From Minisyncoccota bacterium (GTDB lineage: Bacteria; Patescibacteriota; Minisyncoccia; Phycocordibacterales; UBA9973): 64,000 nucleotides of DNA. The notes under the pieces are model-generated. The model was not told where the DNA came from. It made no database searches and worked only from the letters and a program-made list of their open reading frames with translations. Positions 6,877 through 40,791 of the stretch are shown piece by piece. The translations under genes and the position numbers were made by a program. Numbering within the stretch: position 1 is the first letter of the stretch; the number at the start of each line of letters is the position of its first letter. Location of the stretch: assembly GCA_041666045.1 (NCBI GenBank), contig JBAYHR010000004.1, positions 4,996-68,995 of the forward strand. Direction: 5' to 3'.

Positions 6877-7317
6877 TTAAAATGGTTTCCAATTAGTTAA
6901 ATAAGTAGTTAAAACAACGTTGCCATTTCTTTGTAAATTTTGTTGCCATAGAACTGTGGATATTATTAATTTAGTATTCGCATCAACAGTTGAAATATTT
7001 ATAGTTCTGGTAAAAATATCAGTAACATCAGGCAATGCGGAAAAATCCCACTGATTCCCTGCTTTCACAAGACCATAAGGTCCATCTACTAAATTAGTAA
7101 AATTTTCGTCTCTTATGTTTCTAAGTGCTTCAAGCCCTTCTTCGGCAAGAAATACTGCCTGAGTGCGTTTTCCACCTAAACTTGAAGATTCTTCTCCAAT
7201 ACTTAAAACTCCAAGTAATGCGACTATAAACATAGAAAAAATAGCTACAGTAAGCAATACTTCAATTAAACTAAAACCAGAAATTCTTTTATTAATATGT
7301 AAGTATACCTTTTTCAT
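6877..7317 (-). CDS. Minor pilin / prepilin-type N-terminal domain protein
   Basis: SGFSLIEVLLTVAIFSMFIVALL prepilin motif. Confidence 0.6.
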   Translation of the reverse strand: MKKVYLHINKRISGFSLIEVLLTVAIFSMFIVALLGVLSIGEESSSLGGKRTQAVFLAEEGLEALRNIRDENFTNLVDGPYGLVKAGNQWDFSALPDVTDIFTRTINISTVDANTKLIISTVLWQQNLQRNGNVVLTTYLTNWKPF

Positions 7318-34453: not shown

Positions 34454-35413
34454 TTATTTATTTAAATATCTTCTAACTGCAAGGAAAGAAGAAAGCATTC
34501 CTAACATAACTCCTGATAATAAAACTATTCCCGAGATTTGAAAAAAATTTGAAAGATAATAATCGTATAAGTTAAGACCTAGAAAATCTGTCATATTATT
34601 GCCAAGCCAAATTGTTACAGGCAAATATAAAATTAATGTTATCGCTGTGGCAATAAAACCATAAATTGCGCCTTCAATGACAAAAGGTCCGCGAACTTGC
34701 ATTTTACTTGCGCCAACAAGACGCATTATGCCTATCTCTTCTCTAGAAATAAAAATGGCAAGACGAATAGTATTGAAAGTAATAACTAAAGAAATAATTA
34801 TTAAAATAAAAGTAATAATAAATCCTAATTTTTGAGAACCAGCAATAATTGAATTTAATCTATCTATAACTAATTTATTTTGATGATAATTTACTTTATC
34901 TATTATAGATGCAGAACCAAGCACAAGCGCATTATCAGACTTCATAAAATTTGCAATAGTCTCATATTGAGAAACTTCTTTTGCTTTTACATTAAGATAT
35001 CCTCCTAAAGGATTGTCTTTTATTTCATCAAGAGCTTGAATCGTAGGATAATCATTTGAGTGACGTTCACGGAAAAGTTTAAGCGCTTCTTCATCCGAAG
35101 TATAAGAAACTTGAGCTACTTCTGGTAATTTTTCAAGAGATGCTTTTAAAGCTAAAATTTTATCTTCTGAAGAACCAACATTAAAATAAATTGTCACATC
35201 AACTTTATTTTTAATCTGATCTAAAGAAGAATACAATACCGCGTGTAAAAATATTATTGTTGCTATAACAGATAAAGTGATAGTTGTGACCAAAACAGCC
35301 GCCCATGAAATAATCCCATTTCTTTTAAAATTCACAAAACCTGATTTTATAATTCTTCTTAATCCAGTCATCCCATTAAAAATTTTAATTAATAAGCTTA
35401 ATCTTCTAACCAA
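34454..35413 (-). CDS. ftsX: Cell division permease FtsX
   Basis: FtsX topology with four TM helices; adjacent to ftsE. Confidence 0.8.
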   Translation of the reverse strand: MVRRLSLLIKIFNGMTGLRRIIKSGFVNFKRNGIISWAAVLVTTITLSVIATIIFLHAVLYSSLDQIKNKVDVTIYFNVGSSEDKILALKASLEKLPEVAQVSYTSDEEALKLFRERHSNDYPTIQALDEIKDNPLGGYLNVKAKEVSQYETIANFMKSDNALVLGSASIIDKVNYHQNKLVIDRLNSIIAGSQKLGFIITFILIIISLVITFNTIRLAIFISREEIGIMRLVGASKMQVRGPFVIEGAIYGFIATAITLILYLPVTIWLGNNMTDFLGLNLYDYYLSNFFQISGIVLLSGVMLGMLSSFLAVRRYLNK

Positions 35414-35447: not shown

Positions 35448-36128
35448 TTATATAATATATTTACCATCTTTGTCATCACGAATAATTTTTCCTTTTTCCA
35501 TAGTAACAACCCTTTTACCAATTGAATCAATAACACCACGATTATGCGTAGTTAAAATAATCGTCGTGCCTAAATCATTTATTTTCTTTAAAATTTGAAT
35601 AACTTCATAAGTATTGACTGGGTCTAAATTGCCAGTTGGTTCATCGGCAATAATAAGCTCCGGTTGATTAATAATAGCACGCGCTATAGCAAGCCTTTGT
35701 TGTTCACCTCCAGACATTTGATGGGGAAAATGAGAAATTCTGTTCCCCAAATCAACAAGTTCTAAAACATGAGGCACATCTGTTGCTATTTCTTCTCTAG
35801 TTTTTCCTACAGCCTCCATTGCAAAAGCAATATTTTCATACGCTGTCTTATTAGAAAGTAATTTAAAATCTTGAAATACTGCGCCAATACGACGACGAAG
35901 CTTTGTTAAATCCTTACTTTTTAACTTATGCACATTAACAGATTCAAAAAAAACGCTTCCATTGCTTGGACGCTCATCTGCCATAATCATTTTAACAAGA
36001 GTTGTCTTGCCTGCGCCAGAATGCCCAACAATAGATACGAATTCACCAGCAGTTACCGTCAAGCTAACATCGTCCATCGCTATTGAATCTCTATTATAAA
36101 TTTTTGAAACATTATTAAAATAAATCAC
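35448..36128 (-). CDS. ftsE: Cell division ATP-binding protein FtsE
   Basis: Walker A GHSGAGKTTL, ABC signature LSGGEQQR, Walker B IIADEPT; GTG start after an AAGGA RBS. Confidence 0.9.
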   Translation of the reverse strand: MIYFNNVSKIYNRDSIAMDDVSLTVTAGEFVSIVGHSGAGKTTLVKMIMADERPSNGSVFFESVNVHKLKSKDLTKLRRRIGAVFQDFKLLSNKTAYENIAFAMEAVGKTREEIATDVPHVLELVDLGNRISHFPHQMSGGEQQRLAIARAIINQPELIIADEPTGNLDPVNTYEVIQILKKINDLGTTIILTTHNRGVIDSIGKRVVTMEKGKIIRDDKDGKYII

Positions 36129-36140
36129 ATCCTTAGTTTA

Positions 36141-36169
36141 TCACAAATTCCTTTCTGCTTCAATAAACA
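36141..36169 (-). repeat. 29-bp direct repeat TCACAAATTCCTTTCTGCTTCAATAAACA (copy at RT 3' end)
   Basis: Identical to 39904-39932 at the prfB 3' end; encodes FIEAERNL plus TGA on the minus strand. Confidence 0.85.
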
Positions 36170-37163
36170 TACTAAGTTTATACCCATTCCCATGCCCCAG
36201 CATCCCCAAATACGAAGCAATGGTATTAGGTTTTTGATTATTCTTTAAATTCCTAAACATCCTTTTCTTTGTGCTATTTCGTAATACTCTGTGTTTAGGA
36301 AAATGTACCCAGCCTAAGAAATCCACACCTGAATAAATAGTTTTAATAAAAACTTTATCTGGATGCATAGTTAATTTTAATTCATTTTCTAAAAACTCTT
36401 TCATTTGTTCTAAAATATTTTCCAAATAATTTTTGTCTTGCGATAATATAACAAAATCATCAGCGTATCTTATATAATATTTCACTTTCAATTTATGTTT
36501 TACAAATTGATCAAATTCATTCATATAGATATTTACAAGGAGTTGAGAAGTTAAATTACCCAAAGGCAAACCTTTTGAAAGTGACACAAACTCTGCCATG
36601 GCAGAGTTTGTGTCACTTGTATAAAAACTATCTATAATATTATCTAAAAGCCAAATGATATCTTTATCTTTTATAAATTTTACTAAAATACTTTTTAAAA
36701 TATTATGATCAATACTCGCAAAGAATTTTTTAATATCACATTTTAAAACCCAACAGGTTTTTGAATTATTTTTACTAACTTTGCGAAAATAATCCCTAAA
36801 CTTATTCATTCCCTTATGAGTACCTTTCCATTTACGGCAAGAATATGAATCACTGATAAATTTTGAATCAAAGAAAAAATACATTTTTTGATAAAGAGCG
36901 TGATGCAATATCCTGTCACAAACAATGGCTTTATGTATATCACGAGGTTTTGGATCAGAAATTTTAAAAGCATAATATCCTGAATGTTTATAATTTTTTG
37001 TTTTTAAATCATTGTGAAGTTTTAATAAATTTTCCATTAAATTTCTTTGCCAAATTTGAACATCTTTTTTATTTGATTTTTCGCTCCTAAAATTTTTCCA
37101 CGCCAAAAGTAAATTTTCCAAAGATATGATATCATTGTAACTATGAATAAAAGTTTTTATCAT
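36141..37163 (-). CDS. Diversity-generating retroelement reverse transcriptase
   Basis: RT motifs including YIRYADDFVIL (YxDD) and the DGR-specific LGxxxSQ (LPLGNLTSQ); 340 aa; the last 8 codons are shared with prfB. Confidence 0.85.
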   Translation of the reverse strand: MIKTFIHSYNDIISLENLLLAWKNFRSEKSNKKDVQIWQRNLMENLLKLHNDLKTKNYKHSGYYAFKISDPKPRDIHKAIVCDRILHHALYQKMYFFFDSKFISDSYSCRKWKGTHKGMNKFRDYFRKVSKNNSKTCWVLKCDIKKFFASIDHNILKSILVKFIKDKDIIWLLDNIIDSFYTSDTNSAMAEFVSLSKGLPLGNLTSQLLVNIYMNEFDQFVKHKLKVKYYIRYADDFVILSQDKNYLENILEQMKEFLENELKLTMHPDKVFIKTIYSGVDFLGWVHFPKHRVLRNSTKKRMFRNLKNNQKPNTIASYLGMLGHGNGYKLSMFIEAERNL

Positions 37164-37176
37164 TCTTCTGATATTA

Positions 37177-37187
37177 CCCCCCCCCCC
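37177..37187. repeat. C11 homopolymer in the 31-bp divergent RT/avd intergenic region
   Basis: Direct reading; striking in a ~30% GC genome. Confidence 0.8.
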
Positions 37188-37194
37188 GACGATT

Positions 37195-37545
37195 TTGCCA
37201 GTTATGCAAAGGGTAAAAACTGTGTATATCCTATGGTTTGAATATTATAAAAAATTAGAAAAAACACACAAATACACGCTTGGTCAAAAAATTGATAATT
37301 TATTTATAGAAATAATAGAAGCCGTATCAATTGCCACATTTTTAGATAAAACAGAAAAACAACCCTGGATAAGACTTGCAATACGGAAATTAGATACAAT
37401 AAAAATACTTTTAATGATACTTTGGGAAACAAAATCTCTTGATAATAAAAAATATATAAACATTTCCAAACCAATAGATGAAATAGGCAGAATGCTCGGT
37501 GGTTGGAATGGACAGCTTACAAAACAAAACTCTCCCAATAAATAG
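37195..37545 (+). CDS. avd: DGR accessory variability determinant (Avd, four-helix-bundle protein)
   Basis: 116 aa basic protein; C-terminal IDEIGRMLGGWNGQL matches the Avd/TIGR02436 EVGRILGSWI region; helical pattern. Confidence 0.7.
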   Translation: MPVMQRVKTVYILWFEYYKKLEKTHKYTLGQKIDNLFIEIIEAVSIATFLDKTEKQPWIRLAIRKLDTIKILLMILWETKSLDNKKYINISKPIDEIGRMLGGWNGQLTKQNSPNK

Positions 37546-37563
37546 GGAGAGAAATGAAAAGAG

Positions 37564-37696
37564 TTGCGAGAGAGAAAAACAAAGCGATTGTTGCCACTCC
37601 ACTTGTTGTCTAAATTCCCATTATTGTTGTTAAGCCACAACCCATCGTTATTGCATTCCACATTGAAAATCCTAGGATTGCCATCGCGATCAGTAT
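37564..37696 (-). repeat. DGR template repeat (TR)
   Basis: 133-bp direct repeat of the VR; differs from the VR only at positions that are A on the sense (minus) strand. Confidence 0.85.
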
Positions 37697-38005
37697 ATAT
37701 AAACTATCATCTATGCCACCACCCTTAGAATGCTCTCCGGGTTGAATTTTATTTAGTATCTAAAATACTTCAATAGTTTATACCAAGTAATTTCATTTTT
37801 TAATGAAGTGTCTGCACACATTACACTATTTTTAATCTTAATTAAAAATATTCTGAATGCATGGATACTGGATTCGGTAGTGAAAAACCTTAATCTTTCA
37901 CATATTCACCTACTACCATTTTTATTTTATCATACTTTTTTTAAAAAAATTCAAAGTTCAAAAATCAAAGAGTCAAAAGAATTCTAAATTGCAAAATCCT
38001 AAGTT

Positions 38006-39859
38006 CTAATTCTTGCGAGAGAGAAAAACAAAGCGATAGTTGCCACTCCACCTGTCGCCTAAATTCCCATCATAGCTGTCAAGCCACAACCCATCGCCAT
38101 AGCATTCCACACCGAAAATCCTAGGACCGCCATCGCGATCAGCAATAGAATCCATCGCAATTCTTAACCATTCTCCCATAAGTTGATCTTTATAATTAAG
38201 TCTAAGCTCTGGACCAACTTGTGGTGGACATAATTCTAAACCAAGTTTTTTTGCTTTATTGTATATTTCTTTTAAAGTAGCTCCATTTGGAAAACCGAGT
38301 TGTTCTATTGAAAATGAAACTAGATTAATTTTTTCTTTTTGTTTTAATGGCTCTATTTTATTTAACATATCTTGAGCATAAGAATATATTTTCATTCCTT
38401 GTACTTTTATTTCTTTTGTATATTCTTCTGATGTTTTAGTTGTAAGTTCTATATTTTTTCTAAATATTTTCTTTTCAGGAAATGATTCATATAAATATTC
38501 AATATTTTTTGGAATCTTTTTTGCAATTTCCGGATTCCATTCTCCTATATATGCTTTAGTATTTTCGTTTATTTCATCTTTATTATATGCAATCTGTTCT
38601 GAATTGCATTCAAAAATAATTGATGCATCTTCTTTGATATTTCTTTGTTTTCTTAATTCTAAAATTCGTGGATCTTTTTCATAACCAAAACTTGAAATAG
38701 AATCATTCATCTCATATAGAAAAACTAAATCTTGTTTGGTAAATTGTTCATTCTTTTCTTGTTTTTTAACAAGCTCAGTCACTTTTTTCATATCATTTGA
38801 TTTTTTATCAAATTTTTCTCCACCCGGCAAAGAATGATATTTTTCTTGTGCAGTATCTATCAAAACAGGTTCTAATTCTTGTCGGTGATTCACTCCACGC
38901 ACTTCTGCTATTTCATCTCCTTGCATTCTAATTGCAATTCTGGGCTCAGAATAATTACCAGCTGTTCCTTTAGTGTAATAAACATAAAAATCACCACCTT
39001 GCAGATGACTTGGCGCGCTTCCTTCGGCTGTACACCAGCCTGTGCCTTTGCCACGAAGTGCATTTTCTAAAATATGATAATCAGAACCTTGATCATATTT
39101 TACCCATTCACCTTTTAATGATTCACGATTTAATGTTCCAGCTGTTTCTATTTGAGCAAAAGTGTAAAGTTTTACAAAATCTTTCTTTTCTATCATCTTT
39201 TCTAAATCAGCTCTTTTTTGTTTTTGATCTTCCCCTGTGAATTCTTGGCTACCGATACCAGTAGTTAGCATTCTGTAAACAAAACCAAGCGCTTCGGAAT
39301 TTATTTCTGGAAATGGAGCAATTGTATAATCTGTGCGTTTACTATACTCTCCTTTTTCTTTATTAAGAGTTCCCATTTTAGACAAATTGCGAACAATAAA
39401 ATACCGAAACCAAGTCGGATATTCTGCATCGTTTTGTTTTAAGTAATCAAGCCAGCCATTTAATGATTTTACTTGAATTTCTCTTTTTTCTTTAGCAAGA
39501 TTTTCATAACCTTTTATTAGCTCATCATTATCTTCCAACTTCATTATTTCATTGCTTCTGCCTTGTTCTATTGCAATTCTTTTTTCTGATTCATAAAGAC
39601 CAACAGCGATTTTTGTAAGTGTATCTTCATCTTTAGTGTCTATGGCTAAATCTTTTATTATTTTATTTTTTAGTAATTCCCAACCTCGCTCGTCTTCCAC
39701 TATTTTATCAAGACGATCTAAATACGCTTCTATTCTTTCATCACGAGAATGCGGAGCAAATTTTCTTTCTGGATCTTTTTTAGCTTTTTCTACTGCTCGA
39801 ACAACCGGTTTTGAACCCGGTAAATCTGAATATTTTTGTTCAAGAAAATTCTTTTTCAT
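38006..39859 (-). CDS. DGR target protein with C-terminal variable (CLec/FGE-like) region
   Basis: 617 aa, no signal peptide; C-terminus ...GVECYGDGLWLDSYDGNLGDRWSGNYRFVFLSRKN is encoded by the VR. Confidence 0.8.
   Translation of the reverse strand: MKKNFLEQKYSDLPGSKPVVRAVEKAKKDPERKFAPHSRDERIEAYLDRLDKIVEDERGWELLKNKIIKDLAIDTKDEDTLTKIAVGLYESEKRIAIEQGRSNEIMKLEDNDELIKGYENLAKEKREIQVKSLNGWLDYLKQNDAEYPTWFRYFIVRNLSKMGTLNKEKGEYSKRTDYTIAPFPEINSEALGFVYRMLTTGIGSQEFTGEDQKQKRADLEKMIEKKDFVKLYTFAQIETAGTLNRESLKGEWVKYDQGSDYHILENALRGKGTGWCTAEGSAPSHLQGGDFYVYYTKGTAGNYSEPRIAIRMQGDEIAEVRGVNHRQELEPVLIDTAQEKYHSLPGGEKFDKKSNDMKKVTELVKKQEKNEQFTKQDLVFLYEMNDSISSFGYEKDPRILELRKQRNIKEDASIIFECNSEQIAYNKDEINENTKAYIGEWNPEIAKKIPKNIEYLYESFPEKKIFRKNIELTTKTSEEYTKEIKVQGMKIYSYAQDMLNKIEPLKQKEKINLVSFSIEQLGFPNGATLKEIYNKAKKLGLELCPPQVGPELRLNYKDQLMGEWLRIAMDSIADRDGGPRIFGVECYGDGLWLDSYDGNLGDRWSGNYRFVFLSRKN
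38013..38145 (-). repeat. DGR variable repeat (VR) at the 3' end of the target gene
   Basis: About 17 substitutions relative to the TR, all at TR adenines (13 A->G, 4 A->T in coding sense); the 3'-terminal ~30 nt are identical (IMH-like). Confidence 0.85.
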
Positions 39860-39903
39860 ATTTTTATATTACCATATAATTTATAAAAATCCAGCGTTTA
39901 AAA

Positions 39904-39932
39904 TCACAAATTCCTTTCTGCTTCAATAAACA
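39904..39932 (-). repeat. 29-bp direct repeat (copy at prfB 3' end)
   Basis: Identical to 36141-36169. Confidence 0.85.
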
Positions 39933-40791
39933 AATCCAAATCTCCTTCTAAAACTTCATCAACATTTGAAGTTTCAACTAGAGTCCTATGATCCTTAACC
40001 ATTTTATATGGATGAAGCACATAAGAACGAATTTGACTTCCCCATTCTATTTCTGTGCCTTTGGAAATCTTCATACTTTCTTCTATGCTCTTTTTTTCTT
40101 CTTGCGCCTTTTTAAAAATCTTTGCCCGGAGAATATTCATGGCTTGCTCACGATTTTGTTCCTGAGAACGTTCTCCTGAAGCGTGAACAGAAATATTTGT
40201 AGGAATATGTACTATGCGTACTGCTGTTTCCCTTTTATTTACATTTTGTCCGCCTGGTCCTCCAGCACGAGCAAATTCTATTTTTAAATCAGCTGGAGGT
40301 ATTATAAAATCTTTCTCTTCTAATTTTGAAAATTTTGGCAAAACTTCAATTAAAGAAAAAGAAGTATGCCTTAACTTTTTTGCATTAAAAGGAGAAATCC
40401 TAACCAAACGATGCACCCCACTTTCATTTTTCAAATTCCCATAAACCCCCTTACCATCTATTTCAAAAGAAACATTTCTATATCCGCCATGATCATTTTT
40501 GTGTTCGTGTATAAAAGAAATGTTCCAACCTTTTTTATCAGCATACTTCATATACATATCCAAAAGCATTTTAGAAAAATCTTCCGCGTCATCTCCTCCT
40601 GCGCCAGAAATTATAGTCAAAATAGCATTACCTTTATCATATTTACCAAAACCTTGTTTCTTATTTTTTAAATCTTCTAATTCTTTTAGAGTTGTCTGCG
40701 CTTTATTTTTATCAGCCCAAAAGTTAGGACTTAACATTTCTTCCTCCAATTCTTTTATTTTTTGTTCTATTTTATTTTTTTCTTCATCCAT
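39904..40791 (-). CDS. prfB: Peptide chain release factor 2 (short N-terminus, no programmed frameshift detected)
   Basis: SPF tripeptide, GGQ ([15 protein letters not shown]), [11 protein letters not shown]; 295 aa; a terminator lies directly upstream, so no frame-0 leader exon. Confidence 0.8.

Follow-up and report, generated by a model that had tools for sequence, protein, structure and literature searches.

Diversity-generating retroelements (DGRs) of the candidate phyla radiation (CPR) have been described as the 'CPR set' by Wu et al. 2018 (PMC5758913) and as clade 2 by Roux et al. (10.1101/2020.04.01.020958). DGRs are regarded in the literature as domesticated elements that have ceased to be mobile and are carried by phages, plasmids and conjugative elements, and the mobility of those that target bacterial proteins is little explored there. 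We analysed a stretch of 64,000 nt (the window, to which all the coordinates refer) from a metagenome-assembled genome (MAG) of Candidatus Paceibacterota, in which the interval between prfB, encoding release factor 2 (RF2), and ftsE is the site of a complete DGR cassette. Like the CPR-type DGRs, this cassette has a reverse transcriptase (RT) with an RVT_1 domain, an Avd protein, adenine-only mismatches of the template repeat (TR) with the variable repeat (VR), a C-terminal VR and a compact chromosomal arrangement. Unlike those described, it is flanked by a 30-bp duplication of host origin, and its RT takes its tail and stop codon from the neighbouring gene. The diversification machinery of the window cassette is that of an ordinary CPR-type DGR and the insertion scar is the new part; in the searchable literature, no account of DGR cassettes with host-derived flanking duplications was found. 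The best explanation is probably that a CPR DGR was inserted here as a DNA unit, by a DNA-level, non-site-specific and microhomology-assisted process with duplication of the target.

The prfB end around the cassette and the empty site of relatives

An earlier note on this DNA had described a perfect 29-bp direct repeat bracketing the DGR. The 29-mer is present exactly twice in the window (36141-36169 and 39904-39932), had 0 matches in 100 of 100 shuffles, and has no third copy in the window when up to three mismatches are allowed. The two unique copies therefore stand, albeit with a corrected length, because the perfect repeat is 30 bp long (36140-36169 and 39903-39932, with a spacing of 3763 bp). 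On the coding (-) strand it reads TG TTT ATT GAA GCA GAA AGG AAT TTG TGA T and gives the last 8 codons and the stop to both RF2 and RT in the identical frame, so that one repeat closes both open reading frames (ORFs), as had been noted. The left, prfB-side copy (39903..39932, - strand) completes RF2 and is colinear with the prfB 3' ends of relatives, and the right, RT-side copy (36140..36169, - strand) is contiguous with the ancestral prfB-ftsE junction. Between the copies only the RT, avd, TR and target/VR were found, in agreement with the earlier description of the interval.

The FIEAERNL-type ending is, judged from homologues, the genuine conserved C-terminus of RF2, as 120 RF2 homologues end in ...F[IVL]EAE[KR]NL. 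In the RT homologues, conservation stops at ...GHGNGYK[LI] and only short unrelated tails lie beyond. Two of the loci fetched for comparison, L003 and L014, have a native RT tail in common (IQREIQ.. / IREEIK..), and the window lacks it. The absence of this tail places the right breakpoint inside the RT ORF and means that the RT borrows host codons and a host stop, which agrees with the proposal of the earlier note that a genuine RF2 C-terminus had been grafted onto the RT.

The earlier note had predicted that an empty site would carry prfB, one copy of the repeat and ftsE. In seven contigs of DGR-free relatives (RF2 88-93% identical; L006-L010, L012 and L013), the site reads prfB-TGA-12 nt-GTG ftsE with a single prfB 3' end, as predicted. 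The junction is prfB ...TTATTTGTTGAGGCTGAAAGGAATTTATGA TAAACTAAAAAG GTG-ftsE in L006-L010 and L013 and ...TGA TAAGATTAGTGT GTG-ftsE in L012, and the synteny of prfB, ftsE and ftsX was seen in L006-L010. In the window, the RT-side copy is followed by a 12-nt spacer, TAAACTAAGGAT (36129..36140, - strand), which holds the ftsE ribosome-binding site and is equal in length to that of the relatives, and then by the GTG of ftsE; this arrangement is colinear with the empty junctions. A same-species empty allele was not found, the exact ftsE protein being present only on DGR-bearing contigs; when metagenomes were scanned with a degenerate pattern of the prfB end, only 3 loci were recovered, each of them more distant.

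Empty sites alone give no polarity, because recombination between 30-bp repeats would restore the exact empty site, and the DGR with its repeat could in principle have been ancestral to the clade and lost from the empty relatives by such precise recombination. However, 7 of 7 relative contigs are empty at 88-93% RF2 identity and with three different junction sequences, and the closest cassettes are at other loci. Furthermore, L006 differs from the window at 4 sites of this 30-bp stretch, yet the two copies in the window still agree at 30 of 30 positions, which makes the duplication much younger than the split from L006, and the repeat would in any case still need an insertion to arise. An old insertion followed by loss is thus quite unlikely. 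The colinearity of the empty relatives with the RT-side copy of the window indicates that the ancestral state is prfB-12 nt-ftsE and that the 3763 bp were inserted with 30 bp being duplicated, and it establishes the insertion, its polarity, its boundaries and the duplication. The earlier reading that the whole DGR had inserted as a mobile cassette with a 29-bp duplication is thus retained for the insertion as a unit and for the duplication, with 30 bp as its length, and the word mobile applies only in the sense of unit insertion.

The window contig is a MEGAHIT k141 contig, and the default k values of 29 and 39 are close to the repeats of 30 bp here and of 39 bp in another cassette (L086, below), which would suit an artefact in which the assembler joined the cassette to the chromosome by way of a short k-mer common to both. 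The final k was 141, much longer than the repeat, so junction k-mers must exist in the reads. In addition, the RT with the RF2 tail is present on 2 contigs (ENA and JGI/NCBI), the ftsE protein of the window is on 3 contigs with its neighbourhood unchanged, both ORFs need their own copy of the repeat for a proper ending, and an analogous 16-bp case (L025, below) recurs across samples and assemblies including Logan. An assembly artefact is accordingly considered extremely improbable and the repeat is taken as a duplication made at insertion.

Some further features were noticed around the junctions. The stretch ATAAACTTAGTATGT (36170-36184, in the RT just 5' of the right repeat) matches ATAAACTAAGGATGT (36126-36140, just 3' of it) at 13 of 15 positions, and TGAT-TTTAAACGCTGGAT after the left repeat has a loose likeness to TGA-TAAACTAAGGAT; these likenesses could be chance in AT-rich DNA or the trace of a longer or templated junction. 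In L004/L005 (5244-6006), another insert is present at the prfB-ftsE junction, a 188-aa membrane ORF on the opposite strand, and the prfB end is not duplicated. In L011 (1-68), prfB is followed by 68 nt of unrelated sequence, after which the contig stops. The junction of prfB and ftsE may be a recurrent insertion point.

The cassette and its borders

Every gene of the locus lies on the - strand except avd, and the coding order is prfB, left repeat, 43-nt leader, target/VR, TR, hairpin, avd (opposite strand), RT, right repeat, 12-nt spacer, ftsE, ftsX and pyrG. The prfB gene (39904..40791; Pfam PCRF and RF-1) ends within the left repeat copy, which contributes the last 8 codons and the stop; it has the short form (295 aa), a hairpin of its own lies upstream, and no sign of a programmed frameshift was seen upstream of the gene. 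The 43 nt between the repeat and the target (39860..39902) comprise a 15-nt stretch, TTTAAACGCTGGATT (39888-39902), directly beside the left repeat, and then ~28 nt of cassette leader 5' of the target ATG, homologous to the leader of L014. The target gene (38006..39859) encodes 617 aa without a Pfam domain, is ~80% identical at the nt level to the 617-aa target of L003, and carries the VR (38013-38142) in its C-terminal part. The TR (37564..37693) is a 130-nt repeat 88% identical to the VR. Just 3' of it, within the avd 3' end on the other strand, lies a terminator-like hairpin with a T-run (37530..37551), as recognised by a consensus scan only. The avd gene (37195..37545, + strand; 116 aa) scores 43.7 bits with Pfam bAvd against a cutoff of 40 and is antisense to TR and RT. 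The RT gene (36141..37163; 340 aa; Pfam RVT_1, E 1e-24) has lost its native tail after ...GYKLSM. Beyond the spacer, ftsE (35448..36128; GTG start; Pfam ABC_tran) is followed at its 3' side by ftsX (34454-35413; Pfam FtsX and FtsX_ECD) and then by pyrG. In the TR/VR core every mismatch is a TR-A to VR-G/T change, and the 3.73-kb unit is for this reason a canonical, compact Paceibacterota (CPR) DGR.

The RT has at least 8000 close homologues, of which the named ones come from Paceibacterota and Nomurabacteria MAGs, and the homologues are located in TR/VR cassettes; the antisense avd was also present in the cassettes that were checked directly (L002, L086 and L025/L103). The closest RTs (76-80% aa) are found in other gene neighbourhoods, with the layouts ndk|617-aa target-TR-avd-RT in L003 and tsaE|222-aa target-TR-avd-RT|polA in L002. 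The similarity between L003 and the window (~80% nt) runs from one base before the target ATG (39860) to RT codon ~331 (36174), and that with L002 (75% nt) covers TR, avd and RT. In all comparisons the similarity ends at GGGTATAAA (GYK). An atypical GC content of the cassette was considered and rejected; cassette and flanks have equal GC, in agreement with a related donor. For the 15-nt stretch TTTAAACGCTGGATT, no second copy was found in the window or in 111 fetched loci, and it is possibly a filler or a degenerate copy of TAAACTAAGGAT.

A scan of the gap between prfB and the target (39860..39902) found no promoter-like or terminator-like site, and ftsE still has its 12-nt spacing but is now behind the RT. 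The target gene is therefore likely to be co-transcribed with prfB, with ftsEX expressed behind the RT, and the DGR is probably wired into the prfB-ftsEX operon. A hypermutation cassette would thus sit inside an essential operon, and ftsEX would now probably be expressed from behind an RT.

A perfect 40-bp palindrome (20+20 nt, without spacer) was observed in the RT ORF at 36579-36618, where it encodes ..SDTNSAMAEFVSL.. just before the GLPLGN motif. Perfect hairpins of differing sequence occur in the same RT loop in L003, L014, L015, L022, L024, L025, L036, L044, L055, L057, L058 and L067. A stem of at least 8 bp was found at this position in 14 of 79 RT genes, compared with 13 of 814 control windows from the same genes. 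As the structure is conserved and the sequence is not, this palindrome may either function as a hairpin in DNA or RNA or mark a spot where palindromic insertions are frequent. The search of the region for known RNA families gave only the neighbouring tRNA and sub-threshold noise at this palindrome.

Some of the other loci show cassette borders of their own. The L014 contig (3848 bp) nearly corresponds to one cassette, from 52 nt before the target ATG to 15 nt past the RT stop, and its upstream host ORF ends within the leader homologous to the cassette leader of the window; a circular form was considered for this contig and dropped, since it has no terminal overlap. In L066 (3260-4615), the RT ORF lacks its own stop and continues in frame into a response-regulator receiver gene (..YKIKLKLQN-MTEQLKKTILLVEDD..), with the right end inside the RT tail. 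In one MAG, GL140_5_metabat_390, the RTs of L015 (7962-8993) and L022 (5350-6381) are 88% identical at the nt level, and their target, TR and avd do not align, which suggests that the RT module was duplicated or exchanged independently of the remaining cassette. Similar GC-rich hairpins lie 5' of the target in L003 (~7245-7300, CCCACATGTCGGACATGTGGGG) and L086 (4336-4365, CCCCAAATGTCCGATATTTGGGG) in unrelated host contexts, and may be a conserved part of the left cassette end.

Flanking repeats in other cassettes

The recurrence of such repeats was surveyed in 80 RT loci fetched from GTDB species representatives, in each of which the RT stop, TR/VR and target start were located. In 57 canonical, related Paceibacterota cassettes, the region around the RT stop (-48 to +30) was compared with the 350 nt upstream of the target, and 399 cross-locus or reverse-complement comparisons served as the null. 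The longest matches were 39 bp in L086, 30 bp in the window and 16 bp in L025, against a null maximum of 12, and these three are the only flanked cassettes. A 17-mer in L021 and a 12-mer in L064 were rejected, being within chance expectation and away from the cassette borders. No flanking repeats were found at L002 and L003, which carry the closest RTs, or in nine IMG/VR loci, and flanking repeats as a general feature of these cassettes were thus rejected.

In L086, the 39-bp perfect repeat represents the last 12 codons and the stop of a ComEC-like gene, and its second copy starts within the RT stop codon and is followed by a T-run and then by a convergent SOD gene. This repeat forms a strong hairpin (-18.3 kcal/mol, z -5.8). 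A hairpin as the common target was considered and rejected, as the L086 site alone folds strongly and those of the window and L025 do not. In L025, the repeat ATCAAAGCGCTTGGGT is the end of both pgk (...GIKALG) and the RT (...EEKIKALG*), where IKALG is the genuine conserved C-terminus of pgk, and the right copy also encodes the C-terminus of a convergent HIT gene. This arrangement was seen in at least five fetched contigs from different samples and assemblies, including Logan, of the 11 that carry the L025 RT. The DGR-free synteny was found for both sites, with comEC and SOD adjacent in L103 and with pgk, a 71-aa ORF and HIT in L109.

The three flanked cassettes share further features. The RT stop codon is wholly or partly host-derived in 3 of 3, the right ends of the RT lie 4, 9 and 28 nt past the YKL codons, and in all three, as well as in L002 and L003, the cassette and the host gene upstream of it point the same way. 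With two more cassettes flanked in a similar manner, the process seems to be a recurring one and not a one-off event.

The duplicated stretches also correspond to sequence that both neighbours apparently need: the prfB C-terminus with the upstream context of ftsE in the window, the overlap of the convergent pgk and HIT genes to within 1-2 nt in L025, and the comEC end with a bidirectional terminator hairpin in L086. This correspondence suggests strong selection on the insertions that survived.

Route of insertion and comparison with known systems

The earlier note had left the mechanism open among cDNA-mediated, site-specific and recombination-mediated routes. Site-specific integration would make the 30-mer an attL/attR pair, used by a tyrosine or serine recombinase acting in trans, as happens with elements that lack an integrase and rely on the recombinase of another element, or by host Xer, with the 3' end of an essential gene rebuilt on insertion. 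A direct repeat that restores the C-terminus of a conserved gene is typical of integrative elements, and DGR-carrying conjugative elements of Bacteroides have flanking repeats at tRNA-Lys (10.1101/2024.11.15.621889). However, no integrase or transposase was found in the cassette or in any of the 27 window ORFs scanned, 20 of which were other mid-size ORFs, the scan not being exhaustive, and the three flanked cassettes differ in repeat sequence, repeat length and target gene (prfB, comEC and pgk). As to the 30-mer itself, it consists of ordinary coding sequence, in which the nearest relatives have 4 differing positions; it does not form a dif-like palindrome, and folding of the reconstructed site is only weak. 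A dif-like or att-like core was rejected because the repeats are unrelated. The cassette has no terminal inverted repeats, with a best inverted match of 6-8 nt between its ends, and no shared repeat or conserved left or right end sequence was found among the three flanked cassettes. The missing terminal inverted repeats and the unrelated repeats and ends make both site-specific recombination and classical transposition unlikely, and the first of these, taken as an account of this locus, we regard as very improbable.

Copying by the RT of the cassette itself deserves more attention. In this scheme a cassette transcript would be reverse-transcribed at a nick or free 3' end, starting from the RT 3' tail, in a target-primed manner like that of long interspersed nuclear elements, and a staggered break of the second strand would produce the duplication. 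The variable duplications of 16, 30 and 39 bp, the right end that always falls in the RT 3' tail with the RT stop taken from host DNA, the lack of a transposase and of terminal inverted repeats, and the co-orientation with the upstream host gene in the three flanked cases and in L002 and L003 are all in its favour. Against this, whatever the template, DGR RT-Avd misincorporates at ~50% of the adenines, and its processive synthesis starts only at a privileged site of the TR RNA and is limited to ~100 nt (PMC6182149), which would wreck a 3.7-kb copy. A three-way comparison of the window, L003 and L014 gave 65 changes at A, 51 at T, 59 at G and 50 at C in the window lineage, and the adenine excess that would be the signature of whole-cassette reverse transcription is thus absent from this lineage. 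The adenine misincorporation, the TR-limited processivity and the lack of an adenine excess together make copying of the whole unit by its own RT unlikely. In addition, the L025 insert starts 8 nt 5' of a perfect TTGACA-17-TATAAT promoter, so promoter DNA travelled with the cassette, and RVT_1 is the sole domain in the 340-aa RT, in which no endonuclease domain was found. Self-retrotransposition is on this evidence unlikely. The tests thus disfavour two of the routes that had been left open, site-specific integration and copying by the own RT, and we infer that recombination at the DNA level is the favoured one.

In the DNA-level mechanism that we propose, one DNA unit would have inserted into the 3' end of prfB in a lineage with the ancestral prfB-12 nt-ftsE arrangement. 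The insertion would have duplicated 30 bp of the target, such that the left copy preserved RF2 and the right copy stayed joined to the native ftsE leader and came to end an RT whose own tail had been cut off. The route would be illegitimate, non-site-specific recombination, in either of two variants. A staggered break may have taken up a DGR-bearing DNA fragment, followed by fill-in of the gap, or replication may have switched template off the chromosome and re-entered a few tens of bp upstream. At the RT-side junction, a short microhomology would probably help the joining in either variant. For this junction in L025, where the tail is EEKIK(A), a comparison of sequences hints at such microhomology: the tail agrees both with the native pattern seen most often and with the P0057 tail, EGKIKA* (AAAATAAAAGCATAG vs AAAATCAAAGCG). 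The process would involve neither a transposase or integrase encoded by the element nor copying of the cassette by its own adenine-mutagenic RT. The duplication would vary in length, from 16 to 39 bp, and in these compact genomes the survivors would be those insertions whose duplication covers the sequence that both neighbours apparently need.

Several observations weigh against the proposal of a DNA-level insertion. All the data are metagenome assemblies. The best available donor is only ~80% identical at the nt level and no closer copy defines the original ends; as no close donor is at hand, we infer the junction chemistry (microhomology and filler). In 54 of 57 cassettes no flanking repeat exceeded the null, so the signature either does not last long or is not a general one. 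Instead of a duplication, the L086 repeat could represent two copies belonging to a dispersed palindromic family, and the L025 repeat is only 16 bp long and may in part be native to the RT. Variable-length target duplications are a classical mark of target-primed reverse transcription. Lastly, the right ends cluster, each of the three being no more than ~30 nt from where the conserved RT domain ends. This clustering hints at a non-random right end, which plain random breakage does not predict.

For the spread of the very abundant chromosomal DGRs of CPR bacteria, the locus gives a nucleotide-level view before and after the event, with the empty and the filled site, an exactly duplicated stretch and an RT that is truncated and runs on in host codons, and the movement of cellular DGRs becomes a testable question. 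The CPR DGR cassettes may still be semi-autonomously mobile, with insertion at free 3' ends near gene termini driven by a cDNA or by their own RT working faithfully or as an end-joining enzyme; we consider this unlikely. If such mobility were true, it would be the first bacterial counterpart of target-primed, non-long terminal repeat (non-LTR)-type retrotransposition, the view of DGRs as elements of lost mobility would be overturned, and long variable target duplications together with RTs reading into host DNA would be expected.

The window locus can be compared with four kinds of known systems. Insertion sequences with long and variable target-site duplications are known, e.g. IS1634. As with the target-site duplications of transposable elements, direct repeats of host sequence surround the insert and the empty site exists in relatives. 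Unlike a DNA transposon or insertion sequence, the cassette has no transposase in the non-exhaustive ORF scan and no terminal inverted repeats, its ends are imprecise (RT cut at +4, +9 and +28 nt after YKL), and the duplication length of the DGR cassettes is not fixed (16, 30 and 39 bp). It resembles the integrative elements that target gene 3' ends, such as those of Bacteroides at tRNA-Lys (10.1101/2024.11.15.621889), in having a repeat at a gene 3' end of which one copy keeps the C-terminus, and differs from them in that no integrase was found in the cassette or the scanned window ORFs, the sites have no common core and the cargo consists of the four DGR parts only.

With non-LTR target-primed reverse transcription the cassettes have in common an RT-encoding unit, variable duplications and one end at the 3' end of the RT gene. 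They are unlike non-LTR retrotransposons in lacking an endonuclease, in an RT-Avd that is adenine-mutagenic and poorly processive off the TR RNA (PMC6182149), in the absence of adenine-biased divergence and in the promoter inside the L025 insert. The last comparison is with the insertion-duplications made by microhomology-mediated illegitimate recombination, end joining or template switching, among them end joining by group II intron-like RTs (10.1101/2022.03.14.484287). Unlike the known cases, such events are not documented for DGR cassettes or CPR bacteria; like them, the insertions described here are non-site-specific, with imprecise ends, a variable duplication length, a possible microhomology at the RT-side junction of L025 and a possible 15-nt filler at the other junction of the window.

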